Assembly (NCBI GenBank): GCA_008632985.1
Contig: QPGO01000176.1
Span: 17,778 to 81,777 of the forward strand
Length of the DNA stretch: 64,000 nt
Direction of reading: 5' to 3'
From: Psammoneis japonica
Lineage: Eukaryota
Every line of letters starts with the position of its first letter. Position 1 is the stretch's first letter. Under the pieces are notes generated by a model. That model made no database searches and had not been told where the DNA came from. It saw nothing but the letters and a program-made list of their open reading frames with translations. Below are positions 2,096-61,935 of this stretch, in pieces. A program made the translations under genes and the position numbers.

Positions 2096-4630
2096 TTCAA
2101 GCAAGGCGAGGCCTCTTGGTTTCGACACTGCCACTGCCATCGACAGGACTGAAGAAGTGCTTGGCAGTGTGTTGATGCTTCAACCTGCAAATTCTGCAGC
2201 AACACGCAATGTTGCAGTTGGTGCATCTGCCTCTGCAGAGAGCTTCCCATGCATGGAGGGGCATCGGGGGCCTTCAGGAACCAGCTCACCAACATCCAAT
2301 CCCCTGACAACCTTCCCCCCACAGCCATCAGCAACTCATCAATGGCAGGGACCCAGCCAGCAAACCCCCCATGCTGACTCCAGCACCATTGTCAACACCC
2401 ACACACCTGCCAAAGGCCAGCCCCACACTTCATCTCCAACTCCTCCATCTTCATGCCCTGTTTTAGCTTCAGCACCATCATCTCCAACACAAGGTCCAGC
2501 CCTTCTGATGCCAGCTTGTCCTCCATCTGGAAAATGTTGTTGCTCTTGTTCAGAGTTGTTCTGCATTTGACAAGGGCAAACCTTGTGTTCTCATGTTCTC
2601 AACAAGTGCTCATCAACTGTGTTCAAAAAGCCTTTTCAACAACTGAGCCAATCAGCAAAGTGGGAAACAACAATGCTCACTTGTCTTGCTGTGCATTTGA
2701 TCTTGACAAGATCAACTTTGCAAACATTGACAACAACTCTTTTTACAACCCACATTGTTCCAACAATTGAGCCAGTTGGCAGCAAAGCAGGAAATGACAA
2801 TGAATTAAATTTTTGACTTGCAGAGTTTTGCACTTGACAACAGCACATTTGAAGCAACACGCTGTTGTGACTCATGTCTGTCAATGCCCACATTAATTCA
2901 CCCCATTAATTTGCTGTTGCCCTCCTGGCTGTGTGTTGCTTGCAATTTGATTTGTGCACTCTGTGATTTAGACTTTCTGCACTCAATTGTGTTGCAGTCT
3001 GTTTCTTGCTCTCTTTTCTCAAGCCCTTTGCTGTCTGCACATGATGCCACCCTGTTGCAGTTGCACTTGCATGGCACTGCAGTGCTCTGCAGTTCTGGTG
3101 TCCACAAGGATCTTCTGTTGTTTCACACTGTGACCTCACACACTCTTGCTTTTGTTGAAAAGTGTGCTGGGTCAGCCAAAGCTTTGCTCACAAAAAAAGA
3201 AGAGGGTGCAACAAAAATTGTGAGTTCTGCATGTGTTTCATTTTGAATCATCTTTGCTTTGGTGCAGCNTTTGCTTTTTGGCACAGCTTCTGCTCACCTT
3301 TCTGCATCCCCTGCAGCACTGTCTTCCCATCTTGCTCAGCTTTCATGTCAACATGCCTGAGCACCAAGATTGGCAAAAGTGTCAGTTGTTTGCATTGTTC
3401 TCATGCATGCCTGCTTTCATGCCTCACATCCTTTCTCTTGCCTCAGCTTGCCTCTTGACTTCATTTGGCTGTGCCCAGCCCTTTGCTCTGCTGTTGCCTT
3501 CCTGCAAGGCCATCATTGTCAGGATGTTGAGTGGTGGGCTCTCCTGTGTTTTGCATTTTGTGTCTTGTGAGGCAGCGATGATTTGTTGTTGCACCCACAC
3601 CAAGCCAGTCGGCCAAGGTGGTCAGCATCTGTGTCATTGTCTGGCCATTTTTTTTCCTCCATGTTTGCCTGCACTGTTGCAGGCTTCAATGATTTGAGCT
3701 GACTCAAATTTGCAGCTGTGTCAGCAGAAGATCAATGTCTCAGTTTTTGCCACACTGGTGTGGTGTCTTTGCAGGACAGCAGAGCAGATGCCCAATGCAG
3801 TCAGTGCACTTTGTTTTCATGCAGCACAAGGCAGCAGAGCAAGACAAAGACTTGCACTTGCAGCCACTCTCCTTTGCGCGTCTCCTGGCCAAGAAAAAAT
3901 GCTTGCACAAACCCTGGGAAAGAGAGTGCTTTTTCATTGTGACCACCAACTCTTCCTCCATTGGACAAAGCTTCTTGGCGGTTGCAAAAGCCAAGCTTCT
4001 TCCATTTCCTCCAAATCCAGTGCATCAAAGTGGCACGCCATGCTGTCGTTGTTGTCAAAGAAAGCTCTGCATCATTGTCCATGTCAATGTGGGAAGAGGA
4101 CAAGTGAGAACAGTGATCCCTTGACAGTGAGGGGCAAGAGAGCATGTCAAACTTCTTCAAAAAAAAACAGCACATCATCATGGAGTGGTGTGCCAATGTT
4201 GGACATCTCTCAAGCAAGAGAGATGGCTTCAAGTTGTGCTCAGTCTCAGGCAAGCACTAAAATCACTGCTGCCATTGCAAAGTCACTCATCACCATGTTC
4301 ATTGGCAGAGAAATTGCTGTCATTCACCCATTGAGATTCTTGGACAGTGGCAGGAGGAAAAAAAGAGGGGGACAAAAACAATGGATCACCGTCGAGAAGG
4401 ACAGGGGCCTGAATCCATCAGCACCCAAGCCAAGGGAGTGGTTGACAGATCTGACTGACCCAACGAGCACGGTGCAGCAGCATTGCTTGAGGAGCCAATG
4501 GGAGAGGGAGGTGAAAGAGCACTGGGGACATGTGCTGGGTGTCCCTTTTCACTTGATGTTTTGCTTGCTCCTGAGCCTCAGGGCGGTGTGGTGGAGCAAC
4601 AGCTGTCAAGAAGAAGGCTGGCGAAGAAAA
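2096..4630. other. TpA-depleted and CpG-poor degenerate repeat domain, identity unknown
   Basis: About 7 TpA in 2.5 kb by eye; TG/CA-rich; Cys/His-rich spurious ORFs in all frames. Confidence 0.85.
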
Positions 4631-4714
4631 CTACTGTAGCATGTCTTAGGCATTCTCTTCATCATCAGCATACGTTTGTATTTGCTTTATTGTCTTCGAT
4701 TGTTTTACTACATC

Positions 4715-6900: not shown

Positions 6901-9040
6901 GTCGGCCCTGGTTCAAGTAAGTTACTCTCTTACGGCATGTCAATGTGCGGCAAACACGGATCGGGACGAACGAGTGAGTCGATCGATTCAAATTTCATCA
7001 GAACAAACCTCCCGCAGTTTGATGAAAGATTGATGGGCAAAAAGCACCAAACGCCAAACACCACCGGAATTTGGTGAATCAACTTGCACTGCAGCTGCAT
7101 TTGTTTGCGGTTGCACACTGCACCCCAGCACAAGAGCTCAATCTTTCTCAGCCTCTCACTCAACCGCTGCCACGTGCACAAAAGATGCTCTGGCATCGTC
7201 TTCAAGTCTTTTGTGGATCAGCTGCAAACCACACAACACTCAAACAATGTGCTCAATGATGTTGCAACAATTTGCACTTAATTGACTTGAACTCTCATCA
7301 AAGATCAAAGGCACCTTCTCCTCTTGAGTTCTTTCTTTGAGTTTGCACCAACAAAACCCACACACGCTGGGCTCACACCATCCCCAAACACCAGCAAAAA
7401 CACACCAACCTGCAATTGTCCTCCAAAGCCACTGCTGCAGAAACAGGAAAAAGGCACTTTGCTGTGCCAGCCCCAAAGTCCAGCTGAATCTTCATCATCA
7501 CAGCAAAGCACAAAAGTCAACCAGCTCTCAGTCTGCAGCTCTCAGCAGCTGTGTTCAACCAGCTCCAATTGAGCACAAACAAGTGATTTGTGCTTGGGCA
7601 CATCTCACCAGCATGTGGCACACATCCTGGCAGCAACAGTGCTCTGTGGAGAAGGGTCTGCCATTGTTTTGAAGAGGTTGACACAGCACACTGATTTTGT
7701 CTCCAGGGGTTCTCTGGTTGCCACATGTGGCACACAAATGATTGTGTGCCTCAATTGGATTCCAGTGGGGCAAGCTCTTTCCTGCATTTTGTCATTTTCA
7801 TCTGCTCACCTGCTCACCAAAGGCTGCTGTTGTGCTTGTTTCAGCTGTGAGGTGGGTTGATCATCTTGCATTGTGGCCATTTGTTTGGCCATTGCACTTT
7901 TTGCAAAGTGCATGCTTTCTGAGCAAAACTGTGCAATGGAGCCTGCCTTGGGGACAATTGTGGCACACTTGCACTCATCAGACAGGCTTGACATGTAGGC
8001 CAAACAAGGTGTCCCTGTGAGTGCAGCATCTGGCTGTTGCCGTGCAAGTTGTTTTCATGAAACTTGCAGCGCCCCCCTCTCCTCACAGGAGTTTGCTTTG
8101 TGCATCTTGTTCATGTGCACTGGTGCCTGGTCTTCAACAACTGTTCTTCCCACTCTGCAGCTGTTGTGTTCTTTTCATTGCCTGAGACATGACATTGCCC
8201 ATGTCATTTTGGGAGATTTTGGCAGCGAACCTGCAAGAAGCATTGAAGCTTTGTGCTGGGGAAAATGGAGAGACAGAGGCTTGCACTGTCAGGCTCTTTG
8301 CTTCCTCTTGAGTGTGTGTGCAGCAGATGCTGCCACAAACTGCCGGCAGTGCTTGGGGCCACAAAGCCAGGTGGGTCAACCCAGAGCTGCCTCTGGAAGA
8401 GGTGTTCTGGTTGGCACAGCACCACAAGATCTGTGTCTCAGCAGCTTGTCCTTGTGCAGTTGTCCCCACTCACATTTGCATTTTGCCTCTCCCACATGCC
8501 AGTGTGGACATCTGCAGCTGCAAGCTCTTAGATTTGGCCTTTCAGGGAGTGTGTGTTTTCTTTGACACTGCCCATTTGAAAAAAACCTGGCCCTGAAACT
8601 TCTGCATCACATGGCTGGGTCTAGATGTGCACACAAAATAGATGAAATGTGGGCAGGTGGTCAAGAAGGGGTGGAGTTTGGGCTCTTGTCAGTGGTGTGC
8701 AGAGTGTTTGCATGTGGATGGGCTCTCTGGAGAGAGCTCTGCTGCTTCCAAGTGCTGCCACCAGCCTGGAGCAGAACTTGGTGCAAAGGCACAATGAAGA
8801 GAACTGTCATTTGTGATGCTCAACTTGATGTGGCACTGATGGCACTGTCCATCAATGGCAAAAAGTTGGAAAATCTGTTTGGATGACTTGGAGCAGTTTG
8901 TTGGTTGAAAGTGTGAGATTGTGTGGCTCTGGGTCTGCACTGCAGAAAAGATGAAGCCGCTGCACTGTGAGAACAGAAAATCACTTTGTTGTGAGGGCAC
9001 AGGTGTGCACAAAGGCACCTTGTTGATGCTGTCTTTCTCT

Positions 9041-9376
9041 GCCATTTGCAGGAGCCACAGAGCACAGGCAACCTGCAGCTCAGGGCACCATCCAGTTGCT
9101 TCTCTGCTTCTTTTTCTGCCACACTTGACGGTGCACTGGAAGTGTGGGTTGGCACCATTGCCAGCCTGGCTGGCAATGGAGTGACAGCACTTTAAATGCA
9201 GATCTGTTTTTTTTTCTCTGCCATTTTTTTTCTGCCATCCACAACCACAGAGAACAGGCAACTTGCATTTCAGGGCACCATCCAGTTGCTTCTCTGCTTC
9301 TTCTTTTTCTGCAATCTGCAACCACAGAGAACAGGCAACTCACAGCTCAGGCACAATCCAGGTTGCTTCTCTGTGT
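9041..9376. repeat. Three diverged copies of a ~75-bp unit (ccacagagaacaggcaac...tcagggcaccatccagttgcttctctg)
   Basis: Copies near 9041, 9234 and 9310. Confidence 0.8.
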
Positions 9377-11296
9377 CCATCAAAAAGCACTGTCAAGAGC
9401 TTTTGAGATGTGAGCAGCTGGCACAACAAGAGACTGTGAGAGCAGCAAGCAGTTTTCCACAAGATGCTGCAGATGGTGGCAGCAGCAGTTGTTTGCATGC
9501 AAAGTGCTGCCAAAATCACCCAAACATGTTGCAAAGAAAAGAGCAACACACTGCAATGGTGGTGCATTTTTCAGGCCTTCTTGAGCTGATGCACCAAAGG
9601 AGTCTGTGACAGAGCTGCTCACACAGCACACACAATGGCACTCATCTGTGTCTTCTTGTTGATCAAACATGCAAAATGTGCCTGTTGTTTGAGCTGACCT
9701 TGGAAAAATCAAAAGTTGATGTTGCATTTTTTGAAATGCTTTGCGGGCTGTCATGTGCATGCTGTGGTGGTGACCCCACCAGTGTGGATGGCACTCTTTT
9801 TGTGTCAAAAAGCAAGAGCAGCAGCAGAGGATGAGGAACAGAAATGCAGCCCTGTGTCACAAAGCACTTTCTTTGATTGTTGGGTGCTTCACCACTTGAC
9901 AATGAAGCAGGCATTCCTGGCTCTTGGGGCTCTGCAAAGATGCGCAAGGCTGCTTCACAGGCCCTCTCCCTTGGTGCCAAGGAAGACACAGCCACCAAGC
10001 CCAAAGCCACAAATGATCTGGGTTTGGATGGAAGACATCAGAATTACACCAGCAGTCTCCCAATGTCACAGTCTTTGTCCTCTCAAGCATTTTTGGGGCC
10101 AGGCAAGCATTGGCTGCAAAGTGGATGGTCTCAAGCTTCTGTGCTTTCACCATGTGAGGGGGGACTGGCGGTGCTGTGCACACTGCAAGAAACAAATTTT
10201 CTTGTGTCACTCTTTGAGCAGAATGGAAAACCCCAATTTTGGATGGCCAAACGAATGCTGGAAGCCATCATCAATCCAAAGCCAAGAAGCCATTTGAGCT
10301 GGAGCTCATTTTCATTCCAAGAAAGCTGGTCATGATTTGATTGATGCAAAGGTGTGTGGAATGAGACCAAAGCAGCCCCCCCCAATGGGATGTTTGTGTC
10401 CATTGCTCTCAACATCTCACATTCTTGTGATTGATTCACAATTCACACAGCAGAACCCTGCACAGTGGTCACTCACACTGAGAATGAACCACACATTTGG
10501 CTTGCCAAATGTCTGCTGGTGCAACAACTTGTCATGACTTTGAAAGCATCTCAAAATTCTTGTCATCTTGCACTTGCACCATTCAACAACATGATGATGC
10601 CACTTGACTTGGTTTGATTGATGCAAACATCACATGGCGGCAATCCAGCAATTGCCTTCTACAAGGTCCACCCGCAGAGAGCAAGGAGCAGTCCAACAAA
10701 GATCAGAAGACCTGGCACGACCTTCAAACAAATGGCAAGCCTCTGTCTTCAATGCACTAAAAGTCCTTCTGCCATGTTGGCCACAGTTTGGCAAACATTG
10801 CTGCCACATGGGTGCTTTTCTGATGTCTCCTTGTTGTCTGTGTCACTGAATTCCATGCAAACCTGCAAGACATGGGAACTGCATTGGGGACTGCCAGTTG
10901 GAGCCAAATGCATTTCTTGTGGCTGGGGGTTTCAACTCACAACATCAAAGTGCTGCAGATCAGGGCTGGGCCAGCCATTGTTGGGGAGGATGTCCTTGGA
11001 AACCAACATTCTGCTGAAGCAAAGTCAACCATTGGGAGGGCTTGAGAGCTCCAGTTCCATGTCCAAGTCTGTTTTTGGTGCCAATTGTTGTTGTGTTGGC
11101 TTTTTGGATGCCTCCATCAGTGCTTTCAACACATTTCAAAGCAAGGCCAGAACATGGTCTGTGGAGCAACAGCTTTGCCGTGTCTGGTCAGTTGGGCACC
11201 ATGTGATACTTTGGGGCAGAGCTTTGTGTGCACTTGCAGCAGTGAGAAGCAACAAGCAGCTCGCAAACTTTGCACAACATTTGGAATTCAAAGGAG

Positions 11297-12135
11297 CACA
11301 AGAGAGACCATGAGTCAACTTCTTTCTCTGGAGACATGGACAAGACAAGATGGAACAATTGCTTGCTCATTTGACACCATGCCATCTTAATGCAAAAGAT
11401 GCATTTCTCCCTGGTGATCACAAATTCATGCAGTGCCTCTGGCGGCTTGAGCCAAACACTTGTTGGACAGCTCTGTCCTTTGAAAATGGTCGTCATTGCG
11501 CAGCTGCTGTGCATTGGCAGCAGCATGCTGAGGGGGGGCAATCTCAACTTGAGCTGACTTTTGAGTGACTTTTCTCATGTCAACAACATGAGGGGAGAGG
11601 TCAAGAGCCACTCTTTCTTGTTGAGAGTGCAGCTGTTGCAATGTGAACCCTGATTTTTGCACAGTCACCAACTTGCAATTGCTTCAATGAGTGGGGAACA
11701 ATGTCCCCCCATGCATTTGCAAATGCTTTGACATGCTGACAAGGCTCTCACCAGAGCACATCAAACCAAGTGGCTGCTCCACATTTTGCCCCACTTTCAT
11801 TGCACCAACAATTGCTCCACAACACAAAGGGCCATCATCTTGGGGAGTGAAGTTTTCTGTTTGTCTTCTCATGAGCAAACAAGCCAACAAAATCTTCCAT
11901 TTGTTTGTGTGTGACTGTTCATTGGGAGCCTGTGAGATGCAACAAATCAGACAGCGTTTTTCTTTTCTCTTCTTGCACAAAGAGAACACAAAGAGAGACA
12001 CTGTGACTCACCTTTTTTCTCTGGACACAAGGACAAGACAAGATGGAATGGTTGCTTGCATCACATCATTTGATGTCTGCCACAACAATGCAAAAGAGAT
12101 GCATTTCATTCTCCCCAGAAGTTGCAAATTCATGC
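11297..12135. repeat. Diverged direct repeat (~135 bp) at ~11297-11430 and ~11987-12135
   Basis: Shared core tctctgga..ca.ggacaagacaagatggaa...aatgcaaaaga...tgcattt...caaattcatgc. Confidence 0.7.
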
Positions 12136-12566
12136 TTTCTACTTTCTGCGCAGGCCTGGCTAGCCAGCTAGAGGTGCTGCAAGTTGAAGTGAAACATCAT
12201 CATGTGCACATGCCAACCACTCAAATTTTCAAAAACACTCTGCACAAATTCATGTGTTCTCAAACCCCTCACCCGGCACATCCCAGAACTGCCACAACAA
12301 AAAGGTGAGGGACCTGGATTCTTTTTTAAAAGGTGAGTTTCTTGACACCCTCCCAGATCACATGCTGAAAAAGGATCCAGGGAAACAAGGAGGAAGATCT
12401 TGTTCCCCCGGAAAAGGAACATGGCTCTTGTTTCTTTGCAACATTGCATGAAAGTTACGATGCTGCGCACACTTTGCTCTGACATGACCCTGGCAGTCTG
12501 GCACATTTTGTTTGGTCTTCAGGATGAAGTGTGGATTTGCATGTTGGACAATCTGGGTCTCATTGA

Positions 12567-13060
12567 TTGCAATTGGTCATGTTTATTCCGGACTTTGTCG
12601 GCAAGGTGTCGGCTGCGCGAGCTGCCTTAAAACCCAACCTTTGCATGAGAAGAGGCTGCTTTCAATGTTGATTGGGTCGCTTTCTTGATTCATGCGTCAT
12701 GTGCCAAGAACCTGGACAGTTTAAACAGGGAGCTCAAGATAAAATGCACCAACCTCATTGAAGACGGAAACAATGTCCTTGTCTTATCCCTGTGATTCAA
12801 GCTGCAGAAAATGCCGGTGCATGCTGCACCTGTCTGAGAAGCGCTGGTCCAACCGTCATGACATTGAGCAGTGGTGCTTCTGGAGATGTCTCTGCGCAGC
12901 GCGAGAAGGAAAAGGTTCATTCTGTGATGGCCAAGGCCATGAGGGAGATTGCTGACTCACTCGGCATTCATCGAAACATCCACATGACCAACGCTGCCAA
13001 TGAGGGCGCACGGGCTGTCAAGGTCGAACCGCCCATTCTTCTAGAGAGATTGCTTGTTGA
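12567..13060 (+). pseudogene. thrB: Homoserine kinase (GHMP family) C-terminal fragment
   Basis: Across frameshifts it reads LQLVMFIPDFVGKVSAARAAL, AAFNV, QDKMHQPH and VIQAAENAGACCTCLRSAGPTVMTLSSGASGD, compared with HSK DxLHQPYR and LSGAGPT. Confidence 0.7.
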
Positions 13061-13929
13061 GACAACATCTAAAGAAAGGCACCCTTGTGCTTGGTGTCCC
13101 CACTTTAACTTTTTAAACTACACAACAAACTTGCACACCGTGCTGGTTAATGAACATTGCCTTTGGAGATCAACGCTTTAGCACTACGAACTTAAGTGGA
13201 ACTTCACACCCGCCTTCCACCGACAGCTTTGCGAGAAGGTCCCCACGCTAAGTAAATTTGACTTGGCACTCCTCTGTTGATATTTCCTTCATGAATCGTC
13301 GCGATAAATGACCCCATCCAACATGTGAACCTGTTCCGGTTCGTCCAAGTCATTCATGAGTTGTTTGGACAGCTTGTCTTCAACATTCTGAGGCGTGACA
13401 ACACCTGGATGAACCACATGAGCATTGGGATCGACTTTACACCTCTAAGCTACGCCCCGACAGGACGGGTTTCGGTTTAGTACGAACCAAAAAGAAATCA
13501 CTATCACACAGTGTATGATGTCCAGTGCACCACTCACCTCTTTGTTCTGTAAGTAATCAGAGTGGTAGACTGGTGACAAGAATTCACGATTAAAGTTGCC
13601 TTGGAATAGGTTGTCATGGTGGCAAAGACAAAATCCACATTTGGTAACAAGCTTCGTCGCCCTTGTTGAGGCAGAATCTTTTGCTCGTTTGGAGTGTCTG
13701 CATCAGTTTCGATCACTTCTTTATCGAGTTTGGTGGGGCTTAGAATCATTCCGCTCGTGTACATGGACGGAAGCAGTGGTTTTGTGTTAGTAGCATTTCC
13801 TACTGATGCCTCTGATAGAATGAGTTGAGAAAGGACGAAACCGCATCGTGCCGTGAAACTTTTTCAGTCGTCGGAGAAACAGACAGAATCGCCTTGGCCA
13901 ACCAAGGACCTGCCTGACAGTTTGATACT

Positions 13930-14110
13930 CTCTTTATCAAATGAAGCATTGAAGCATGTAGAATGCGGCAGCATGATGCGTCGACTACATCGTGTCGGTC
14001 CGGATCCGAACACTCGGAAGCGAATCCTCATCAAGAAGATCGATTACATGTCTGCGTACCGCCGAGGTCACGTCAACAGCGAATCAGCTGTCCAAGCCAC
14101 CGTATCGTAA
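13930..14110 (+). mobile_element. Reverse transcriptase fragment, DIRS/Ngaro (YR retrotransposon)-like
   Basis: RILIKKIDYMSAYRRGHVNSESAVQ resembles the K.D.KSAYRR.H RT motif; short and truncated. Confidence 0.5.
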
Positions 14111-15906
14111 CTCTGGACGACCTGGCACCATTGGCTTAACTTCTGTTGCACTGACCGAGGGAATCTCAGTATAGTCCATACGCAAGTATAGTACCACTGG
14201 CAACAACATAATATTATACACATGAAAACGGAAGCAAACAATGTCAATGTGTGAGGCAAGACGTGACCATAATAACATTATTGGACCGCGCTATTATTGC
14301 TCAAATTCAGTCCAGAACTCAGGGATCCAAAGTATAATGAAGACAAACTAACAGCAAAGGACAACAAGATCGAGACTCTTCGACACCCGCATCGTCAACA
14401 CGGCAAAAGAACAAAAATCAAACATGGATTTGCGCGTCTCATTTATTGACACTTACTCCTTTCCTGATTCCTGAAAAACACAATATATGCAACATTAGTA
14501 TCGCTGTCTCCGATAGGCTGTTACTGTATATGGTTATAGACCCTTGGAAACTGCCGAGTAACGAACGCAAAAGGAATCGAAGCACATCATTGTGCTGTTT
14601 GTTTTATATTCAGCGAGCGAGAGCACAAAGCACCGAAACAAATCAATGTTGAACAGTGAAAAGTACCACGAAATGCGGATGCTTCATTCTCCACAACCTC
14701 TGCTTCGTTCACTGCACCGGTAGGAACGGCCATGCAAGCCCATCCAAGAGCGCCATTGTCTGCCATTTCCGACTACCGCCATCACATGTTCAACTCGATG
14801 ATTCTTCCCTCCGCAAATCCGTACCTAAGCACACCACCCCTCAACCTGTGCGTCAAAAGGACTGACGTTCTTCGAAAATTTCGTCCACCGCACCATTCGC
14901 GACGCTACGTGCAATTGAGCAACTTAGTTACCGAAACTACATTCTCCCTTGAACTGATCCACCAGTACTGTACAGTTGCCCAGGTATTCAAAATAGCGTG
15001 TTTTCCCGTCATTTACACCACCCCACGGAGTCGCTTTCCGTGATTGACTCAGAATATAATAGCCGCGAATGATATTACAAATGATGCAATAATATGCGTC
15101 CCCCGTCGGTCGTCGGTCCGGTTTCTTGGTGTTGTGAGCTTAAAGAAGGGTCGTAGTGACAGGCACTCTGTATCGTTCACACAGAGAGAGAATTGGATTG
15201 GTACGACCTCGCTGCTTGCAAGCCGCAGTCTTGATGGGGATTAGGAAATTTCCGGGAAAAGATTTTTTTTTGCGATTCTCCAAAACAACGAGTTTGTGCG
15301 TCAAATCGTGAATCGGCAACACGTGAAGCCTTGTGCTGGACTCTATCATTCACAGCCGACAGAAGCACAGGGTGCAATTATGTCACTTCTCGGATCTGGA
15401 AACGGATGTTAGACTACCCTCTCTTGTTGTGCTGTGCGCTGCTACTTTGTAGAACGTTGAACCTGCACATCGTCTCATCGTCAATTTCATCACGCCCAGA
15501 GATGCGGCTCTGCCACCCGTGCTGCAAACACCACGGGAGATCTTCTTGTAACCGCACAAAACCACCTCGGCAGTATCTACGACATCCCCCGAGAGCTCGA
15601 CTCCCACTTTTCTAACATGCTGGAGATCTGAGAACCGGTAAAGCACCCAGAAGCCCAGAAGGAAACCAGCAACTTGCCAACGAAACACAGTCACTGCCTG
15701 CATACCGGTAGTGCAGGACGCACCAAGCATTTGGGACGCACAGCGCTTTCAGAGATGATGATGAGCGAGCCACGGCACCATTACATTGTTTGTACTGTAC
15801 GGAACGGTCGGAGACATTTCTACATAAAGGAGGGAAGACATTTATACACTTAAAGGAGGGAAGAAGGGTCATTGCTCTTTGTTACGTTTGCTGTCAGTTG
15901 ACACTT

Positions 15907-16246
15907 TCCTCATGGATTCTCATGGATCCTCTTCATACAAATCTACGAGCGGAACTGAGTAGGGCGGAGCAAGGTCATAATTACAAAAAGTCATTTTCAT
16001 ATACTGCGTTTGCTTCGTATAAAGTACAAGAGAAAGTCAATAAATTGAAAAAACGGTCATTTTCTCAGTCATCCACACGAGTCCTCATGGTATAAATCTA
16101 CGTACGAGAAATCAACGGTCAATGCAAAGAGTCATTCTCTAAACTCCGATTCCTTCGTACAATGTACGTGAAAAGTCATTGAAAATTTCAAAATTTCCAT
16201 GAGGATGACTGAGGATTCGTGAGGATCCCCTGAGGATCCGTGAGAA
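15907..16246. repeat. ~340-bp segment bounded by inverted repeats; possible non-autonomous element
   Basis: ttctcatggatcctc (15917-15931) matches the reverse complement of gaggatccgtgagaa (16232-16246) at 14/15. Four tgaggat motifs at 10-11 bp spacing. Confidence 0.45.
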
Positions 16247-17400: not shown

Positions 17401-17520
17401 GTCTTATCTATATATCTCTCTAGCTAGTTCAAAACTAACTTCACGTCTTCTTCCCCAGTTTTAATGATTGAGGAAGGGGTTATGGCAACTGAATACTGAA
17501 CAAGACACATTGTCAAGAAC

Positions 17521-45179: not shown

Positions 45180-48149
45180 TTGGCACCACTCAAACCAGAA
45201 AATTGTTCTTGTCAAAGCAACAGCAGAAATGGCTTGCTTGATGTCTCCAGTCCCAACATGTCAAAATCCAAAATTCTTGAAGCTGATGATGCCTCTTCCT
45301 CACATTGGCTGGTGGGGGCATGACATGTGCAGCACCCTCTAAAACAACAATCAGCTCATCTGCAGATTGGGGCACAGTGTCATCTTCATCATCCAACTGA
45401 TGCAAGAGCAACAGCAGCAGGTTTTTGTGATTTGGATTCTTGAGATGAGCACCAAATCACCCCCCCCCCCCCCCCCCCTCCCCCTCCCATCCAAAAAAGA
45501 CTCCCCAACAAAACTTTTTTCAAAGTCAACATGATGTGTCAGTCTGACAAAAGCAGCCAAGCAAAAAGAAAAATGAGATGAAGACAGCACCACACAACAA
45601 AAATTCTCTCAACTTAGATTGCCCTGGCTGTTGACTGGAAAAAATGACTGCTCATCACACCAGCCAAAACAGAGCAAAATCACTGAAGCACACACAAGGC
45701 CAGAGAACTGTGCAGAGTTGAGTGTTGCTGTTTTTGGTGGCCATTGACCCAGCAGAGCAGGTTGGAAGTGTTGGAGGCAGTGCCACCAGCAGTGGCAGTG
45801 CTGCTGCAACATGGCCCTTCTTTTCTCTGACTTCTCTTTGTTGGGACCATGTCTCTTGTTGTCTTCGACACTCAGCGGCAACCATGCCATGTCCACACCA
45901 CTCTCTGGCTGGCAGCATTTGAGGCCACCTGTGTGTTGCCGGCACATGATGATTTGATGGCAGCAGCCACCCACCCAGATTGAAAGCTGCTGCTTTGTCA
46001 CATGCAAAGCTGTGGACACTAAAATCTGAACATCATCATTTGCTGTTGACCGCACTTTGTGGAGCTTTCAAGTGGTCACATCTCTGCAATGTCTCATGGG
46101 TTTGCTGTTCATCATGTTTTGCAAACATTGCCTTGTGTGACGATGTCTTTTGGCAAGAGTCACTGTGTGCAATGCATCTTGTTGTTAAAGAGCAGTGAGG
46201 AATTTGCTTCTTGTTTGGCGGCTCTCTTTTTGATGCTTTCAATCTCTGCCTGATGTTTGGGTTCAAGGTTGGCCTGCTGCAGCTGTGTGCTCTGCAAGTC
46301 AGCACATTTTGAGCCCAGCAATCATTGTTCCAGGTTGTTGCCACTGCCAGGAGGAGGTGTCTTTTGGCATGTGTGGGCACCACAAAATGTGGCAAGGGTG
46401 TCCTTCTTGGCACATTTTGCACAGTCTGCCTGGTTGTCTTCATCAAACCACCTTGTTGTCCTCCTGCCCGATGGCTGCTCTTTTCTTTGACCCTTGCACA
46501 AGGCTGACTGCAGATTGCACACAAACCAGTTGAGCACATGAAGTCAGAGCACAAATCAATGTGCACACACATCTTTGGCTGTCTTTCCCAGCCAAACCAC
46601 CAGCAAAATTCCAGCACTGAGAAAACAGACAGACAGAAACAGCTCTTTTGTGGTGTGTCTCAAGAGCAGCAGACAACAAAGACATGGTGGTCTTTGCATC
46701 ATCATGAGGTGCCAAACAAAGAGCCTGTTGCTGTCCCAAAGGATGTAAAAAACACAGAGACACCAAAAAACTGCCAACTCAGCTTTTGTCCACAGCTGTT
46801 GGCAGAGTTCTTTTGGAAAATGGACAGTGTCTCAGTGTCTCATCCTCCCTGCTCACAACCACTTGCCAAACTTTACAATCATGCTCAACAGTGCATTGGC
46901 CTTGACCACCTGATCACATGCTGCAGTTGCTCATGCAACCTTGGCAACCTTCTTTTGCACTGCAACCTCTGCATCTCCAACATTCCCCCAGTTTTGTCCC
47001 ACCAGATTACAAACAGGGAGGCTGTTGAGAGAGAGAGAGAGAGACAGTGCAGTGACTTCAACTCAAATTGAATCAGTCAATTCAAATCACCTGTCCCTCA
47101 CCCCTTGGATCATTTTGGCACAAAAGCTCACCACACACTTTAATGACAGCAGCCAGCCACTGATGAAGCCACCACAAAAGTCTTGCTCCTGACTTCAGAA
47201 AATGCCATTGTGCCATCTGTTTGTCCAAACAGTTGGACAACCATCCAAATGGCAGCTCTGCCTCAGCCACTTTATTTTGTTGGTCACATTTGACCAAAAA
47301 TTGGCTTTGCCAATTTTGTTTGCTCATTTGAGAGAGAGAGGGGGGGGGGGGGGCAGAGCCAAAGTGCTGAGCTGTCAGCAACAGCTGAGTGGTGCTGCTT
47401 GTGCCCCCCACTGCCACATCTGCACTGAGAGCTTTTTCTCTGCTGCTGCTGCTGCTGCTGGTGGTGCTTCCATGGCTGCCAGCAATTCCTTGTGCAATCC
47501 CAGCCTTCAAGGGTGGTGCTGGGTGTGTGGTGTGCCCCTGCCTTTCTGATCCTTGGTGCCTGGCTTTGGCAGTGGTCTCTGTTTCTTGACATTTTCAATG
47601 AGCTGTTTGCATGTCTTCCCTTCCATTCCTTTGTGCTCTGCAGCTGTGTGCATCACAACACTGTTGCCATTGCACATGCAGATAAAAAAGCAACAATCTG
47701 TCCTTGTTCATCATTCACATGTCAGCCCAAAACCGCGTGACGGATGCCACGCTCATGTCCGAAACACCCGTCCATGACATCCGTCTGTGTCCCCCCCCTG
47801 CTCTTGCGCCCAACCAGATGGGAGACAGATGAGTGAGACGAAGTCAGGGTTTGGGCAACCACATTGAAAATGACCAAATTTGCATGTGGTCTTTGTGTGA
47901 AATGGCATTTGATGACTTTCGATGGCTTCCGGACTTCATGGCACTTGCTTCACAAACAAGCACCATTGAAGATTCCAAATTTTGAATTGCCTTTGTCATT
48001 TTTGGGTTGGGATGCCATTGACTTCTGGCCAATTGATTGGCTGTTTTTCCATTTTGAGGTCATCAATCACAAACATTTGAATGCCAGTTGCTTTTGTGTT
48101 TCAATTCTTCACCCTCGGGTGTGGATGTGATGCAGGTGGCAGGACTTGA

Positions 48150-49260
48150 TGCAGCTGTGACACTTTTTTTCCGTTGAGATGATGGATTTTTGGGTTTGTG
48201 TGCTTTTTGCACACAAGCTTGCTTTCAAACCAGTGAACATGCCTGCAGAAAACTCAACCCCCTTTGTTTCTACACCTGACAAGGACAATGACACAACACA
48301 ATCCTGGATTGTTGCCACATTGTTGCAGCCAATGTCCAACATTTGCAGCCTTTGGTTGCAGTGCCTTGAAACCCATCACAGGGACAGAAGAGTTGGCAGC
48401 ACACATCTCTCTCCTTGGGGCCACACAAAATGGATCTCTCCACAGTGCGCACACCTTTCCTCATGCCTCAAGACAATGGAGGACTCAACTTGAAAAATGC
48501 AGGCTGACCTCACCCTGTGACTGTTGACAATCATCAACTCCAAATTGACCAAAGAAGCACCTTTCTTCAGCTGAACTTCTTCCTCAAAAAAGCCAACAGT
48601 GCTGCTGGCCTCTTTTCTCTTCACATCCTCATCAAGGTCCTTGTCACCATCAGATGGCAGCCATGGCAAAGGCTGAGAAGTGGGTCCACATGCCTTGATT
48701 TGTCCCCAGCTTGCTTGACACCACATGAGCACCTGGATGGGTTGCAAACAAAATGTTTTTGGACAGCTTGTCTTCTGAAAGAATGTGCCTGATGGTGCTT
48801 TGCTTTTTTCCACTTGAGGTTGCTTGCGTGCACATGGCACATAGACTGCAAGGTGGCCACCACGCAAGGAGATTTTGACTGTGTTCCCTCTGGTGTCTTC
48901 TTAAAAGTGCCGTCATTGATGGCACTCCAGTCAAGATTGGTGGCAGCAGCACAGGCTGCATTGCTGAGGATGTTGCTTTCCTTTGGCCTGGCTCAGTGTC
49001 TCACTGCCAGGCCCAGGGATGCAATGGCATGCTTGTTGATTTCCTTGACATCAGCCCATGAATTTTGTTCAAAAGCATGAAAAAGTCTTGCTCTGCGCTG
49101 GACCACCCTCAAATCAGTGGTTTCCGTTGAGAGTTTGACAAAACAACCAATTGAGCCTTTGACTCCATTGTTCAAAGTCTTTGGTGCAGACAAACAGCAA
49201 ACCCAAGAACTTTGTGGGCATCCTTCTCTCTGATGATGACAAATGTGACAATGTTCATTG
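48150..49260 (-). mobile_element. Helitron-type Pif1 helicase remnant
   Basis: LNGNH*FEGGP, NAACAAATNLDWSAINDG, HVDPLLSLCHGCHLMVT, VQLKKG, CNNVAT and LSGVETKG resemble Pif1 helicase motifs of Helitrons, with Tyr changed to Cys/His. Confidence 0.6.
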
Positions 49261-50959
49261 AAAATTTTTATCTCAGCTCGATGTCACACGCACAGACAAC
49301 GAGACACAGCCGTCCAGGCCAGGGCAGCGCCTCGCGCATCATCCTCACACGTTCTTCAAGCGCGTTCTTCACATTTAACATTTTCAATAATTTCGCGACC
49401 ATGACAACCGCAAGTTGATGAAGAGTTGAAAAATCACAACGACACCACGCAAGCAATCAGTTGTGTGCTTGTAATGGTGCTTACTTGCTATTTTTGGAGA
49501 CTGCTACATTCATTTTCTGTGTGCGATTCTACAATAATTTACTGCAGTGGCATTTACCGTTTCATCGTTACAGACAACAACAAAATCACTGCTGCTTCAG
49601 CACGTCGACGCAGCGACGAAAATTCTTTGGCCACATCATTCGATTCGACTGATGCTCATGCTGAGAACGATGGAGATGAAAATTATTACGATACTGTGTT
49701 GTCGGCTGTCTACGATTCCGTTTTAAAAGCCCACTGCACCCATACTGTATCATACGCCCTTGCTCTTGGAGCCTCCCTTGCCCTTACTCTTACCCTTCGT
49801 TGGCGCATGAGTAGGTTCTGGCGTAGGTTCCGGCATAGGTTCCGGCATATGTTCCGGCGTGGGTTTCGCTGTAGGAGCCGGGGCTCGTTCCTTGGGTTCC
49901 TATGATACCCTTGGAGGATGATCCACCCTTGCCTTGGAAGATGATCCACTTGTTGTTGCTTTTGTGATCTGCGATCGGTAAGTTTCGGGGGAGCAGCGAC
50001 ATTCAAAAATGAGTCTTCGTGACACCTACAGTTTGGACACATGCACAAAACACGTACCAACATTCAGGCAGCTAGCACGGTTCACCGTGGAAATGTGGAA
50101 AGAAGTGACAATATCGGTGGCGCAATTCAGAAGAAGAGCTTCCCGGTATTCCCTTAAAGCGAAATGCAAAGACATCCGAGACCGCCTTTGGTGGGAATCA
50201 AAAAGAACGCCTTTTCCGTTTCCGAGACGGCGAATTGCGACGTGGAGGGATTGGCAAGCGACAAGGCCGCGCTTGGGGCAACTGACTTTTCTCTAGTTCA
50301 CGCCGTGTACTGTACGATGCGTACGGTCCGAACAAGGCGGGGCTCCTCCTATTTGCCCAAAAATATGACTCTCCGAGCAAGATCCATTGTTTTCTCTGTA
50401 TTATGGATTCTTTAAGGATGGAGCCAATTCGGGATCCATGCTGTGGTATGATCTGTGCCGCTTGTTTTAACTCACTCATGACTATCATTGCTGCGTTCGT
50501 ACTCGTAGCGCCAATTCATGGCTATGCAATTCGCGGTGTGATGGCGACGGGTCTTACTAATACTTGTACTGTATATCAAATCAGTGTTGGTCAAAAGATG
50601 CTGTATATGGGCATTATCTTGTCGCCAAGAAGTTTCTTTGGCACAAGTTGGATGCATTGTAGGCTTGAATCTAGCCTCGATGGAAGTCAGTCGAGCGAAC
50701 CGGCTCGTAATTCGCAGAGGCAGTCGCCTGCTGCAAGTGCGCAGCCAGACTTTGCCGCATACTCTTTGCGAGGACGAGCTACAGGAGACGAGCCGGGGGA
50801 TGACATGGACTGGATGGATCGGCATGTCCCAATTTTCTATCAAGCTCAAGAACGACTTTTCACGTGCTGGCACCACCATACATGCATACGCCTCATCCGA
50901 TTCTTCATACGACTCGTCGGAAAATTCGATCCTGAGTGTTTTGGAGGACACTCATCAGG

Positions 50960-51313
50960 TCGCCTCTCATGAAGACAATGACCCATTTCACATTCTACTG
51001 TTGGGTGCAACCTTTGACCTTTGAGAAACCAAAAATTGCAGTCAATTGTGTTTCGGGATCACTCGAGTATGTCTTGGATATGCCTCCTTTGGAAGCTTTG
51101 GAGCTTTCTAATACTGCTCAGGAACATGGAACATCGTGTCTGGTAACGTGGAAGCGAGAGGAGTACCTCGCGCTGGGCAAGCAGCTTCAAGTACGAGACA
51201 TTTTCTGCCGTGTTGTTCCCTACGACTATTGTGAAGGCGGACATCGTGGATGGCAAGCTAAGCATGCTAGTGGAGGAGCTTCCAAGCCTGGAAACTTGCA
51301 AGGATTCAACTAG
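50960..51313 (+). pseudogene. Inverted duplicate of the 3' half of the ClpS-like gene
   Basis: DPFHILLLGATF...VSGSLEYVLDMPPLEALELSN...GFN*. A 7-bp duplication (cctttga) shifts the frame. The 3' UTR is also homologous. Confidence 0.9.
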
Positions 51314-51872
51314 AATAGAATGGTAGTATCACTTTCTAGAGTGTATTTAGAAGGTTGGCTGCACGATGGTTATCTGAAACCTAAACGAAGTAAAGCGTTG
51401 CTGATAAAATAAATATGGAATGGGTAGGTGCCCCAAACGTCTCACTCTACCGGTACAGGCGGCTGCGCACGGCCAACGAGGGAGTGCTAGCGCCTTAGAC
51501 TACATTGAATGGAGTGTACCAGCGCTTCCGCAATTCGAAGTGTGGGAGGAATCTTTGGCGTACAATGTAAGCGATCCACGCCTGCAAATCCAAAATGTAG
51601 GGCTACTGGTGTCCTAACACCACTTGCACTTTTGGTAGCAATAGCTATTGCTCTCGTACTTGTTCTTTTCCTTTCTTCTCTAGCGACAAACAGGAGACAA
51701 TGAAAGACCGCCAATCAACCACGGTTTCCAGAACGCAATGGGATGCGCAAAAGATTTAAGCGAAGCTTTCTAGGACTTGGTTGCCTTTGCAATCTACTTC
51801 TACTGTAGAAAAGGTCAACACTATACCAATCTCTCGAGATGAGTGACTTTACCTATCTAGTTAAAAACTAAC

Positions 51873-57717: not shown

Positions 57718-57974
57718 TTTTTTGTTTCACAAAGCAAAAACGGTGGACTCGAGGAAATTTTTATTACACTGCAAACGAATTGAAATAATGTGTAGAGTAC
57801 AGTAAGCCAACAAGACTGTATCAACAAACAACGCAACCGACGCAAGGAAATAATGAAATAATCATCTTTTCGTCACTCGCATCTCGCAACCTGAAATCTC
57901 CAAAAATCGAGTGCACAAGTTTGTGGAGTTGAAGATCCAGATAAGGTAGGTAATGAGCTCAACGATGACGTAGT

Positions 57975-60900
57975 CAGTCAGCAAAGGTGGCTGTGGCTGG
58001 GTCAACAGCTGGATGCTGCCATGCAGGCAGAAGAAGTCTGTTGCCAACAAGTGCCCCAGCAAGATGATGCGCGCGATGACAAACACAGGAGCCTTGGAGG
58101 TGCGGCAAACAAGTTGAGGCAAGAGGATGGCAGAGAGTTGCAGCAACTTTGTGAGCAGATTCTTGAGTCACAAGCAAACCTGTTTTTGCTTGCAACTTGC
58201 AACGTTGTGGCTCAACTTGGGCCGAGCTCTTGACAGACACTTCTTGCGTGCCCCAGCAATCGACGAGATGTTGAAACCTCGCCATCCACTCAACTGCTCC
58301 AGCAAGAGCTGCCCCTCTTCTCTTGGGAGAGCTGCTTGGAAGTCTTTGAGGCCGGCTCTTTTGTTCTGCTCCAGCTCTGGTTTGCAACATTGTGAATGTT
58401 TTTTTTGTCTTGCATCACAGGCATGTCTTGCGTGTGCTCTTTTGCAGAGTTGTTTTGTGCTGCCTGCTTTGCAAAGCCAAAGATTTTTTGTTTTGTGCAC
58501 TTGCACAAACAAAAACATGCACCCGGTGCACCCCTGTTCAATGTGTCTGGTTCCATGAAGAGTGAAGAGAGCAACACAAAGTGTGGATGAGTTCATTCAT
58601 TGACAAAATTGTGCCTTTTCTGTTGGTGATCATCGTTGTAGTTTCACTCTACAAGAGCTTTTTTTGTGATTGCTGTGAGCACACTGTGGGTGTGGCAGAG
58701 TGCATTGTGGCTTCATGTGCTTTCACATTTTTGTGCAAGAAGCGTTTGTTGCATGAGGCGCCTGTGCTGTGCCTCGCACATGCATGATTTGCCCCTGGCA
58801 GCCCATCCATCTGCTGGCACAAATGTGTCCAATTGCATGTGTTGTCAGTTTGTCTGTTTGTTTGTTTGGTTTCAAACAATTTCATTTTTCTCTTGACGCA
58901 AATCAGAAATCGACACCATGTGTGGTGCTCCAATTTTTTGCTTTTGTGACATCTGCAAAAGTGCCTCACAAGCCCAAAATGCCCACATGAACAAATTTTC
59001 CACACTCAAAAACACACATTTTCACACTTTGTGTTCAAGTGACGTTTGGCTGTGCCACAGTGGTCTTTTAAAGTGTGCTGTTTTTGTTCAAATTTCCAGC
59101 ACAAACTGCCCTCATCATCTCCCACCTTGCCAGAACATTCCCTCCTGTGACCATCATTGTCTCCCCACTGAAATGCAAAGAGAAGAGACAGACATTGGAG
59201 CATTCCTGGCTGTTTGTGATGACATGCCCAAATCACCATGTGCTTTCAGAGAAGAATTCCTGAAAATTTCAGGTGATTCTGCCATCTGCCAGTGATGCCA
59301 GTGAGGCCACAGTCGTCCTGCTGCCAACCACAAAGTCTAAAAATTGTTTTTCCCACTCAAAAAAGAAGCCACTGGGTGGTGTGAGTCTGTTTGTGGAAGA
59401 ACCACACAGCATCAAGAATCATGTTCTGCCTTGCTGTTTGACGCGGTCCAAATGGAAGGCACGATGGTGGCTTGTCCGCAGAAAATGAACAACAGCTGGT
59501 TTGCAGTGAAGTGGGGTCAGTTGTCAAGGTTGCCTCGGATCATGCAAAAAAAAAAATGTGCAACAACTTTGACAGTGACAACCAAATGAAAGAGCAGCTG
59601 AAGAAAGCAACGCTGCCCTGTGATTCGGTGAAAGTGGGCACAAAGACTGCACCATGCAATGGCGCAAATGCCGCCAGCATCCCCAAGGTGTCAAATGAAG
59701 GAAGCCCAGTGGGGGCTGTCTCTTTTCCCAGAACCCCTCCCACTGTCACAAGAGCTCAACATGCAGCCACTTTGAGGACCACTGGTTCTGTTGCTGGGTC
59801 CACTGTCAGCTCCCTCAATCACAGCACCAGAGCATCATTTGCTGGAGCAAGCGATGCACCAACTCTGCACAGCGATCAGTCTGGGTTGATTCAGACTCTG
59901 ATGATGGTTTTGACTGTGATCCTGAAGACAATGCTTGGGTGTGGGAACCATTTGTGGAAACCACTGACAGCCATTGTTGTGATGATGACAACAAGGACAG
60001 CGCTGATGACAGCAGCAGCAAGGAGGGTGCAGATGATGGCAACACAAGACGCGCCAGCAGACAAAAATCAGATGCATCCCATCCCTCTGATTGTTCTAGA
60101 TCAGTTGAGAATCTTGTTTGGAAGCATGAAGCCTGTGAGGAAGGGGGACTTGTTTGCAGAGGATGAATCTTCCCACCCAAATGAGCTGCACTTGGGACCA
60201 CATGGGCTGCACAATGGTGTCGCAACCAAGTTCAAGACTCCAACTGAGGCAGTTGCGTGCTGTGGCAGTCTTGACCATTGATGTGTTGCAAGGCTGGCTT
60301 CAAATTTGAATGACTGCTTCAGCAAATTCATCAAGCCTGGCCTTGGTGAAAATGGTTGTGGCATTCAATGAAGTGGTCGCCCATTGTCATGGAAGAAATG
60401 CACCACTTTCTTGGCATGGTGCTGGAGGCTGTGCTGCCTGCTTTGCCACTGAAGAGCTTGTGTTGTCTGCTGGCACAGGGCAAGACAAGAGAAAGAGGTG
60501 TGTGCCCAACACCTTGGCTTTTCCACGAAGCACATGTCATTGCGCAGGTTCAAGCAGATCCACGGTGCTTGCCATCCAGAAGACAAAGCTGCATCTGCAG
60601 GGATTGACAAATGTTGTCAGCTTCAGCACTCTTTAAATCAACTCAGTGCTGCTTCATTGCACACCTTTGTTCTGGGCCGTTGTTTGATTTTTGACAAAGG
60701 CGGCATCAGCTGTCGATTGCAGTTTTGTCCCATGCACAGCAATGCAACAAAGACAAACCCGGCAAATGCAAAGTGTCACTTCATCATTCACATGGATGTC
60801 TGCCAAGGTGAGAATGAAAACAACTCATTCATTGATGAAAAATGCCAGATGCTGCCCACCACACAGAAGGCCATCGTCAATGCAGTGGTGAAGTTGGGTC

Positions 60901-61935
60901 TCCATGTGCCCTCAGAGCATGGGTGGAGACACATGGCTCTTGACAATCACTGCCAATGCACTGAGTTGGCAGCAATTTTGCACAATGGGCGCAAGATGCA
61001 CAGCATGGGGACTGCTTGCCAGAGATGAAAAGGGTGGGACAAGGCCAAGATGGACTTGCAAAACAATGCAGAACATTGCAAAACAGCTCATGACAAAGCA
61101 AACAAGATGCAGCTTGTGCAGTGGTGTGACAGCAAAGTGGCAAATTGTGTCACCACGCTGGTGTCAATGGAGGCCACAATGGTGAAGTGTCAGGTTGGGA
61201 AAAACAAACTCGAGAGTTCAAGTGCCCTGTGCCCCTCACAATGCACCAAGACACAATGCAGGCCATTGATGCTGGGGACCAGCACCGACCCCATGGCGGA
61301 GGATTTGCCAACAAAGCTCATGGCAAAAAATGGCACAAGAAAGCCTTTCATGGGGTGAATGACTTTCAGCTGTTGCAAGGTTGTGCTGGTTGGGAATTGT
61401 CTTGCAAAGAAGTGGCCAGGAGGACCCAGTTCAAGCAATGGCAGTTTATGACATGGGTGGCACAAGACTGTCTTGATGTTCAAAAGTCCTGACCAACATG
61501 TTGTGTGGCGTCCGATTAGAATGGCGGTCGGAGCTGCCGACAAAAGAGCAACCACAGTGGCGTCCTTGCCACGCGAACAAACAAGCCTGTCCCTGCGACT
61601 TCAGCTCACAGTGAGTGTTCAGTTTGCCAGTTGGAAACAAACCAACTTCAGCAAGGCCGTGCACCAAGGAGGATTAAAGAAGTCAGCAGTTGCTTGTGAG
61701 TGCTGCGGGGTGTGTTGGCCCACAACTTTGTCCCCATGGACAACCAATGGAAAATGCACCGCCAGCCAGAGTTTGAGGGAATGACTTGCTTTGAAATCCA
61801 TCACTCTCAGCTGGGAAAAGAAATCTGGCCTTTCAAGAGTGACAAAAGAGACGGGAGACACAAGCCGTCATGCTCAGTGAAAGGGACTCATCCCGTCGTG
61901 GTTCGACTGAAAGAGATGCACAAGGATGGAGCGTG
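57975..61935. other. TpA-depleted domain containing a piggyBac relic
   Basis: TpA nearly absent; abrupt left edge near 57975. Confidence 0.85.

Follow-up and report, generated by a model that had tools for sequence, protein, structure and literature searches.

Sharply bounded blocks of near-complete TpA loss in Psammoneis japonica and their probable origin through TpA-specific transitions in dead mobile DNA

Repeat-induced point mutation (RIP), known from Neurospora and other fungi, needs a duplication, mutates both copies by C to T changes mainly at CpA, and thereby makes TpA in tracts that become methylated. The AID/APOBEC enzymes convert C to U on single-stranded DNA in strand-coordinated clusters, and ADAR edits A to G in double-stranded RNA, with a preference for a 5' U and with genomic consequences only via a one-strand retro-copy. 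RIP, APOBEC and methyl-cytosine decay act on C, and before 2026 there was, to our knowledge, no cellular system known that removes TpA from selected DNA. Here we describe a series of blocks from which TpA has been almost entirely erased in a stretch of 64,000 nucleotides (henceforth the window) of the Psammoneis japonica assembly GCA_008632985.1 (contig QPGO01000176.1, positions 17,778 to 81,777 of the forward strand); all coordinates below are those of the window.

A preliminary description of this DNA knew of no account of the phenomenon in diatoms. The phenomenon as such is not undescribed: the same TpA-specific hypermutation is reported in a preprint on Bigelowiella natans (Mettrop et al., bioRxiv 10.64898/2026.01.13.699255), the sole description that our literature searches recovered; the searches found none in diatoms. 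In that preprint, 231 of the 302 mutations in B. natans mutation-accumulation lines fell in an integrated giant virus and virophage, and 230 of these 231 were A to G or T to C changes, all at TpA. They arose in place in integrated DNA, at a rate of about 6e-7 per site per generation and in some lines only. It also describes 124 TpA-poor, CpA+TpG-rich clusters in the B. natans genome of ~95 Mb; most of them carry no annotation, and 'DDE superfamily endonuclease' domains are over-represented among them. The authors propose an ADAT2-like deaminase and read the changes as adenine deamination, though they do not demonstrate it (bioRxiv 10.64898/2026.01.13.699255). By rough inference from these figures, a TpA would disappear from active regions with a half-life on the order of 1e4-1e5 generations, so that saturation of the kind seen in the present window would be the expected end state.

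Taken as a whole, the window has observed/expected (obs/exp) ratios of 0.37 for TpA, 1.48 for CpA, 1.44 for TpG and 0.69 for CpG, but this average masks two states, with 0-5 TA per 500-bp window in the TpA-poor domains as against 12-42 elsewhere. Eight blocks, D1 to D8, were delimited from the TA positions and cover 30,190 nt of the 64 kb. Combined, they retain 101 TA, where ~1,300 would be expected at the density outside, and show obs/exp values of 0.05 for TA, 0.36 for CG, 1.71 for TG and 1.75 for CA; the corresponding values for the 32,914 nt outside the blocks are 0.63, 0.98, 1.16 and 1.20. The longest TA-free gaps reach 1,538 bp (42708-44246) and 1,289 bp (2969-4258), and 26 of 62 windows of 1 kb pass the thresholds of the B. 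natans preprint for TpA-poor, CpA+TpG-rich DNA, forming 5 runs of at least 3 windows. The TpA-poor, TG/CA-rich domains of the preliminary description were thus all recovered where it had placed them, and its estimate by eye of about 7 TA in the first 2.5 kb matches the exact count in D1. The domain that it had drawn from 40.1 to 49.3 kb has indeed lost its TA but is not single, being divided by a 694-bp insertion with normal TA (44486-45179). The blocks are as follows (values are obs/exp):

D1, 2096-4632: 7 TA, 0.04; CpG 0.13, TG 1.75, CA 1.88; no recognisable origin.
D2, 6932-13042: 21 TA, 0.05; CpG 0.17; no recognisable origin; right end (12.3-13.0 kb) less complete.
D3, 18254-20061: 5 TA, 0.05; CpG still 0.68; no recognisable origin; further copies in sequencing run X1.
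D4, 26250-26549: 300 bp free of TA; TG 1.17, CA 1.44, CpG 0.77; doubtful.
D5, 28882-36115: 38 TA, 0.09; CpG still 0.71; GC 0.51; relic of a large DNA transposon.
D6, 40118-44485: TA 0.02; CpG 0.25; contains a leucine-rich repeat (LRR)-coding fragment.
D7, 45180-49269: 14 TA, 0.05; CpG 0.11; continues D6; no recognisable origin.
D8, 57972-61950: 9 TA, 0.03; CpG 0.29; contains a piggyBac transposase fragment.

D4 is weak and may be ordinary sequence that does not clearly belong to the phenomenon.

TG and CA dinucleotides occur at a ratio of ~1:1 in every block, and in each of the 7 blocks examined they follow one another in random order (runs test, |z| < 2). This test detected in the 7 blocks neither strand-coordinated tracts of the APOBEC kind nor the one-strand signature of an edited transcript or complementary DNA (cDNA). 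The TA dinucleotides that survive are far from a random sample: 27 of the 101 in-block TA lie in TTAA, and with the eight edge TAs included the enrichment is 28/109 against 60/1,441 outside (p = 4e-13, Fisher test). Normalised for length, the retention of TA falls from 0.51 in TTAA to 0.11 where a single flank is of this kind and to 0.04 where neither is, provided that the blocks started out with four-base frequencies similar to those of the DNA outside. Among the half-sites of survivors, T is found at -1 with a frequency of 0.46 as opposed to 0.20 outside, and at -2 with 0.55 as opposed to 0.27, while the contexts ATAT, GTAC and GTAT have been wiped out in the blocks. TTTA, TAAA and TTAA are accordingly the relatively spared contexts.

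The direction of change could be followed in D5, which, together with the other features that bear on the nature of the blocks, is specified here:

28864-33438, minus strand: pseudogene of a transposon protein of ~1,500 aa with a C-terminal DDE_Tnp_4-type domain (tblastn; residues 1-1517 of library protein P0005, in several frames).
35575-35725, minus strand: fragment in D5 resembling the intact gene 36671-37432 (minus strand), found by self-comparison and including a 95-bp pair.
27042-28711: 1.67-kb element adjoining D5, with 62-nt terminal inverted repeats (TIRs; 97%) and normal TA.
44486-45179: 694-bp element with 27-nt TIRs (CTACG...CGTAG), TTGG on each flank, and normal TA and CpG.
41236-41649, minus strand: LRR fragment in D6 (LRR_14, E 4.3e-8; 32.7 bits, against a cut-off of 40).
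60453-61025, plus strand: piggyBac transposase fragment in D8 (DDE_Tnp_1_7, E 5.5e-7, 29.6 bits, cut-off 22.4).

An open reading frame (ORF) of 423 aa in D5 (30736-32004, minus strand) matched no Pfam family, but had 356 relatives in a library of 1.84 billion proteins, the best with an E-value of 4.5e-77 and 45% identity; a search for closer proteins gave 2 matches, the best 44% identical. Among 11 of the 356 relatives that were scanned against Pfam, 4 were long proteins (1,517-1,747 aa) with a terminal DDE_Tnp_4 domain, 1 carried a Ulp1 protease and 6 had no match. Because residues 1-1517 of P0005 map to 33438-28864 in several frames, and the translation is broken by frameshifts and TGA stops, we interpret D5 as a large DNA transposon of the DDE_Tnp_4 type that survives, over nearly its full length, as a pseudogene.

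For the test of polarity, D5 was compared through tblastn alignments with nine relatives of normal tyrosine content, the Tyr-poor relatives P0086 and P0116 being omitted by design. Columns in which at least 3 relatives were present with at least 60% agreement were taken as conserved; this gave 362 columns, 15 of them Tyr (one stemming from an overlapping alignment in another frame). At the 15 Tyr columns D5 has Tyr in 3, Cys (TGT/TGC) in 5, His (CAT/CAC) in 4, Phe in 2 and Ala in 1, whereas 244 of the remaining 347 columns are retained (Fisher p = 1.2e-4). Thus, in the one block tested, 9 of the 12 changed Tyr columns have become Cys (TGY) or His (CAY). Conserved Trp, Asp, Asn, Gln and His are retained at 92-100% and Ile at 1/13; a T precedes only 2 of the 5 Ile to Val columns, and the cross-codon signal in these is not clear. 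Given that Cys and His are the one-step products of TAY on one strand and the other (TAY to TGY, TAY to CAY), and that they occur at 5:4 in D5 while TG and CA are randomly interleaved in the blocks, both strands have been changed. In the closest relative, P0001, the 7 aligned Tyr correspond to two Y, two C, one H, one F and one L in the D5 ORF. An earlier version of the test, in which the 423-aa ORF was placed in a MAFFT alignment of 49 sequences, had yielded 7 Tyr columns (Y in 2, and R, D, C, A and E in one each) and was superseded by the full-length tblastn mapping.

TpA avoidance is known in many genomes, and the blocks could in principle be natively poor in TA through selection rather than mutation, for instance against a nuclease or a UpA-cleaving RNase, as in some viruses. 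However, frameshifts and stops interrupt the D5 gene, its conserved Tyr have given way to Cys and His, the residues that a single step produces, and its family is of normal Tyr content and not natively Tyr-poor: relatives have a median of 2.8%, and in 143 of 150 the value is 1% or more (the D5 ORF itself has 0.7% Tyr, against 2.9% in the aligned relatives). Such avoidance would furthermore have to be a trait common to unrelated elements, and ratios of 0.02-0.09 lie far past known avoidance, which leaves native avoidance very improbable. A few relatives in the public library are themselves almost devoid of Tyr (0-0.7%), namely P0086 (0 in 556 aa), P0106, P0067 and P0116, and three of these four have His at a Tyr that is otherwise invariant in the 49-sequence alignment. 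A motif search around this Tyr found the motif in 51 of 151 proteins; the residue is Y in 43 of these and H in 4. An erasure of the same kind thus seems to have struck the D5 family in at least one other public genome.

The preliminary description had also derived the direction of change from paired copies, and this is supported in part, by one 95-bp pair and one 59-nt pair; no further pairs were found in the window. In the former, all 3 TA of the intact gene 36671-37432 correspond to non-TA in its copy within D5. The latter lies at the right end of D5, and its two repeats show reciprocal differences, with TA versus CA at one site and TG versus TA at another. The intact gene belongs to no known family and has a paralog in the window (ORF 50286-50969, plus strand), the two sharing 394 nt at 85.5% identity in inverted orientation (36624-37004 and 50964-51357); a three-way alignment of both paralogous genes with the D5 fragment offered no usable outgroup. 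In D3, the differences listed from other copies in run X1 (40 of 439) include 4 TG/CA double exchanges, 4 TG/CG and 2 TG/TA exchanges.

The products TpG and CpA are also those of CpG decay by deamination of 5-methylcytosine (5mC), and the two contributions had to be separated. D3 and D5 retain a CpG of 0.68-0.71 despite a TA of 0.05-0.09, and have TG/CA of 1.5-1.7. In D1, D2, D6, D7 and D8 CpG has dropped to 0.11-0.29, and blocks of this group reach TG/CA values of 1.75-1.88. The GC content is 0.50-0.51 where TA alone was lost and 0.47-0.49 where CpG was lost too. Because D3 and D5 have kept their CpG and yet lost their TA, CpG decay alone is insufficient to account for the TG/CA excess, and the loss of TpA is independent of that of CpG. 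The CpG deficit with its accompanying gain of TpG and CpA suggests that 5mC-type decay forms a second, slower layer in the blocks; in D5, 4 of the 10 changed conserved Arg columns have become Gln, Gln, His and Cys, and at 4 of the sites listed for D3, copies in X1 have CG where the window has TG. A mass-balance simulation on the outside DNA of the window, with the two loss rates as the sole set parameters (92% of TA and 63% of CG converted at random to TG or CA), gave TG 1.77, CA 1.79 and GC 0.480, to be compared with 1.71, 1.75 and 0.489 in the blocks. The preliminary claim that TA was changed to TG or CA on both strands, by a process separate from CpG decay and running counter to RIP, is consequently upheld by composition, runs test, Tyr columns and simulation alike.

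The block edges are step-like. Pooled over 14 edges, the density of TA per 100 bp stands at 5.0-5.7 over the last 100 bp before the edge, drops to 1.0 within the first 50 bp of the block and stays at 0-0.4 farther in, with no gradient up to 600 bp; as the edges were themselves set by TA positions, the innermost tens of bases of this profile are partly circular. On the left, the edge of D5 and the coding end of its pseudogene are no more than ~20 bp apart. These borders, which do not leak into flanking host DNA, the coincidence of the TA-free zone of D5 with the end of the transposon coding region, and the untouched later insertion between D6 and D7 are what would be expected if elements had been edited before integration, as RNA, cDNA or free DNA, by an ADAR-like or APOBEC-like activity, the blocks being insertions of edited copies. 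Such editing should nevertheless have left TA to TG changes on one strand, and is hard to reconcile with the ~1:1 ratio and interleaving of TG and CA and the 5:4 ratio of Cys to His. The identifiable elements (DDE_Tnp_4 type and piggyBac) are DNA transposons without an RNA or cDNA stage, D5 includes a copy of a neighboring host gene, and the B. natans mutations arise in place (bioRxiv 10.64898/2026.01.13.699255). We therefore regard editing before integration as improbable.

As to targeting, the preliminary description had proposed that the process was directed at repeats, which our results do not show. No similarity between blocks was found by blastn, by tblastx, or with 30-mers in a purine/pyrimidine recoding that is blind to transitions; the intact gene 36671-37432 still has the TA that are gone from its fragment in D5; and neither of the two TIR elements, one of which may be multi-copy, has been depleted. 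The 694-bp element is a later, unmutated insertion that divided one old block into D6 and D7. The 1.67-kb element may be a young multi-copy family that escaped the process: the summed depth of X1 contigs over 27042-28711 is 6-12x that of the flank, though such depth is a poor measure of copy number and is also high in part of D5 (33.3-35.3 kb). The normal TA content of these elements implies either that mobile DNA is not uniformly hit or that the process has stopped; its activity would then be episodic or past, or aimed at particular sequences rather than at a chromosomal neighborhood. The proposed link to transposon relics is supported in part: D5 is a transposon pseudogene, D8 contains a transposase fragment and D6 an LRR fragment; it could not be extended to D1, D2, D3 and D7, in whose ORFs Pfam scans recognised no origin.

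The pattern was also examined in the contigs of one public sample (runs X1-X3), the only sample found to contain this DNA; no RNA sample was listed as containing 27001-37000. The X1 contigs reproduce the TA-free D5 at a depth of 46-68, the flanking genes being at 57-68, and this flank-like depth disfavors a gross artefact. An error of sequencing, base-calling or assembly at a modified base would find some room in the N gap of the window, in an ambiguous base within D1 and in the chance that X1 is the source data. Yet a systematic miscall would not stop at element borders as the pattern does, nor be linked with CpG decay and pseudogenisation, and other X1 copies have TA or CG where the window has TG; an artefact is hardly credible. 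Among the pieces listed, the X1 contigs differ from the window at 32 of 2,834 bases in D5 (29139-35970) and at 2 of 4,226 outside (21834-24013 and 35987-38000), a rate ~24x higher in D5 than in the flanking genes. This is a hint of ongoing or recent divergence, although the differences may instead stem from alleles or paralogs.

Our preferred interpretation, which we consider probable, is that the blocks are dead segments of mobile DNA (DNA transposons, pieces of genes and sequence decayed beyond recognition) that were driven near completion by TpA-specific A:T to G:C transitions. Each TA would have become TG or CA with roughly equal odds, site by site and on both strands, within sharply bounded segments. 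The process would act in place on integrated DNA, as suggested by the precedent in B. natans, by targets that are DNA transposons and by the symmetry between strands, with the borders set by a putative sequence- or chromatin-based guide, and a slower and separate 5mC-type decay of CpG to TpG or CpA would then follow in the same segments. As to the chemistry, we tentatively propose deamination of adenine, which would be turned into inosine by a polynucleotide deaminase directed against foreign DNA.

The same products could come from an attack on the thymine of TpA. 5-Formyluracil forms mispairs with G, and in some eukaryotes transposons carry TET/JBP genes; an oxidase of this type could convert T to 5-hydroxymethyl- or 5-formyl-uracil, giving T to C changes on either strand. 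Since TA to CA on one strand is TA to TG on the other, composition, runs test and Tyr columns do not discriminate between the two chemistries. We consider thymine oxidation unlikely, though it is the main rival to deamination: neither an enzyme of this type nor a modified base was seen, with the window as the only genomic sequence available for a search, and the B. natans precedent was read by its authors as adenine deamination, although they did not show it to be so (bioRxiv 10.64898/2026.01.13.699255).

Several points weigh against our interpretation, or narrow what it can be taken to say. The polarity comes from one block with 15 Tyr columns and a handful of paired sites. Four of seven blocks (D1, D2, D3 and D7) have no identifiable origin. 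Both TIR elements (27042-28711 and 44486-45179) keep normal TA, one of them within a mutated block. X1 may be the assembly's own source, in which case its support is not independent. As TpA is palindromic, its sequence cannot tell whether the A or the T was attacked. Finally, the predicted and observed gains per NTGN context correlate poorly (r = 0.14) even though the totals agree (345 versus 369 per 10,000); this comparison, in which the poor fit is probably due to the ancestral composition, which is unknown, was dropped as a test.

Beyond D5, the identity of the blocks is mostly obscured. Pfam scans of in-domain ORFs (78, 93 and 130 ORFs) gave two matches only, the piggyBac and LRR fragments listed above, the latter under the curated cut-off of its family. 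The piggyBac fragment had no match in the PDB, a protein search with the 313-aa ORF of D1 (3698-4636, plus strand) found no homolog, and no viral genes were recognised in the blocks. The DNA between the blocks contains normal genes, as the preliminary description had stated, encoding a GH47 mannosidase, an Orn/DAP/Arg decarboxylase-like protein, a mitochondrial-type Cpn60, a LETM1-like protein (best relative 39% identical among 5.8 billion proteins), a pentatricopeptide repeat (PPR) protein, COG6 and a PI3/4-kinase. Cpn60 (profile positions 8-489 of 490) and GH47 are each contained in one ORF, and three further ORFs span 529-627 codons. Searches for tRNA and Rfam matches in the window were negative, and metagenome and viral scans found no related DNA elsewhere. 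A region of about 5 kb between D2 and D3 (13043-18253) has normal composition and no ORF of at least 150 aa; its sole Pfam match is to the C-terminal arm of Val-tRNA synthetase (17010-17420, plus strand), and it may be an intron-rich gene or one of another, unknown kind.

Some further sequence features lie close to the blocks. To the left of D1, a 26-nt direct repeat, GGTTTCTTGTACGTAATGAAAATCGA, occurs twice, 4 nt apart, at 2040-2095 and runs right up to the block's left boundary, with TTCAAG before the first and after the second copy; the pair may be the footprint of the insertion that created D1. Farther to the left, an N gap of 895 bases (436-1330) is bordered on each side by an identical 57 nt (379-435 = 1331-1387), and looks like a scaffolding overlap that was left unclosed. 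Immediately to the right of D4 lies a tandem decamer, GTGCAACGCC, in about six copies (26644-26704), and immediately to the right of D8 there are about three tandem copies of a unit of ~113 bp, 84-89% identical and with normal TA (62064-62401).

For annotation, the erasure has the consequence that TGA is the sole stop codon remaining in erased tracts, so that long spurious ORFs appear while real transposon genes escape domain searches. Should the pattern be confirmed genome-wide, it would point to a recurring eukaryotic defence. The sparing of TTTA and TAAA would then provide a fingerprint against which candidate deaminases or thymine oxidases could be matched, and the pattern would indicate that nature has an enzyme able to edit A:T pairs of chromosomal DNA in its double-stranded form, which is of interest for base editing. 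More speculatively, and as a possibility that we would not yet call likely, TpA erasure could be an old and widespread eukaryotic defence rather than something particular to a single chlorarachniophyte (B. natans), in which guided in-place editing of virtually all accessible TpA in invading transposons, with a four-base rule of its own (TTTA/TAAA spared), precedes the decay of methylated cytosines.

Set beside the systems from which we started, the blocks share with RIP the defence-type transitions in one dinucleotide context of mobile DNA, continued until the genes are dead. They differ in that TpA is destroyed (0.05) and CpA/TpG gained (1.7), where RIP is recognised by an excess of TpA, and in that an intact gene coexists with its mutated fragment in D5 and no two blocks are alike even in a purine/pyrimidine code. 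With AID/APOBEC they have in common the context-specific hypermutation of invading nucleic acid, but here the change is at A:T pairs and, by the runs test, lacks the strand coordination that marks those enzymes. They resemble the products of ADAR in the A to G change with T/U favored 5' of the changed A, and are unlike them in affecting DNA transposons, with both strands equally changed, rather than bearing the one-strand mark of an RNA stage. With CpG decay they share the products TpG and CpA, but 5mC deamination cannot remove TpA.

The likeness to B. natans extends to the conversion of TpA to TpG or CpA on both strands, to TpA-poor, CpA+TpG-rich clusters that are mostly unannotated and to the presence of DDE-type transposase domains. 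However, TpA is nearly extinct in the present blocks (0.02-0.09), whereas the main targets in B. natans keep theirs (rho 0.45, NCLDV region), and what could be identified among the targets here consists of DNA transposons and gene fragments rather than an integrated giant virus and virophage (bioRxiv 10.64898/2026.01.13.699255). The flanking-base rule and the order in which TpA goes first and CpG later are seen here; 'TTAA' does not occur in the main text of the preprint. The host genomes also differ, with an average of 8 introns per gene given for B. natans (PMC13746701) and single-ORF genes of 520-627 codons in this window. With TA near extinct over 30 kb, DNA transposons as targets, sharp borders and a flanking-base preference, the window has the appearance of the end state of a B. 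natans-type process. We infer that the process is of the same kind as that of the preprint, here saturated on DNA transposons, and not a categorically new system.

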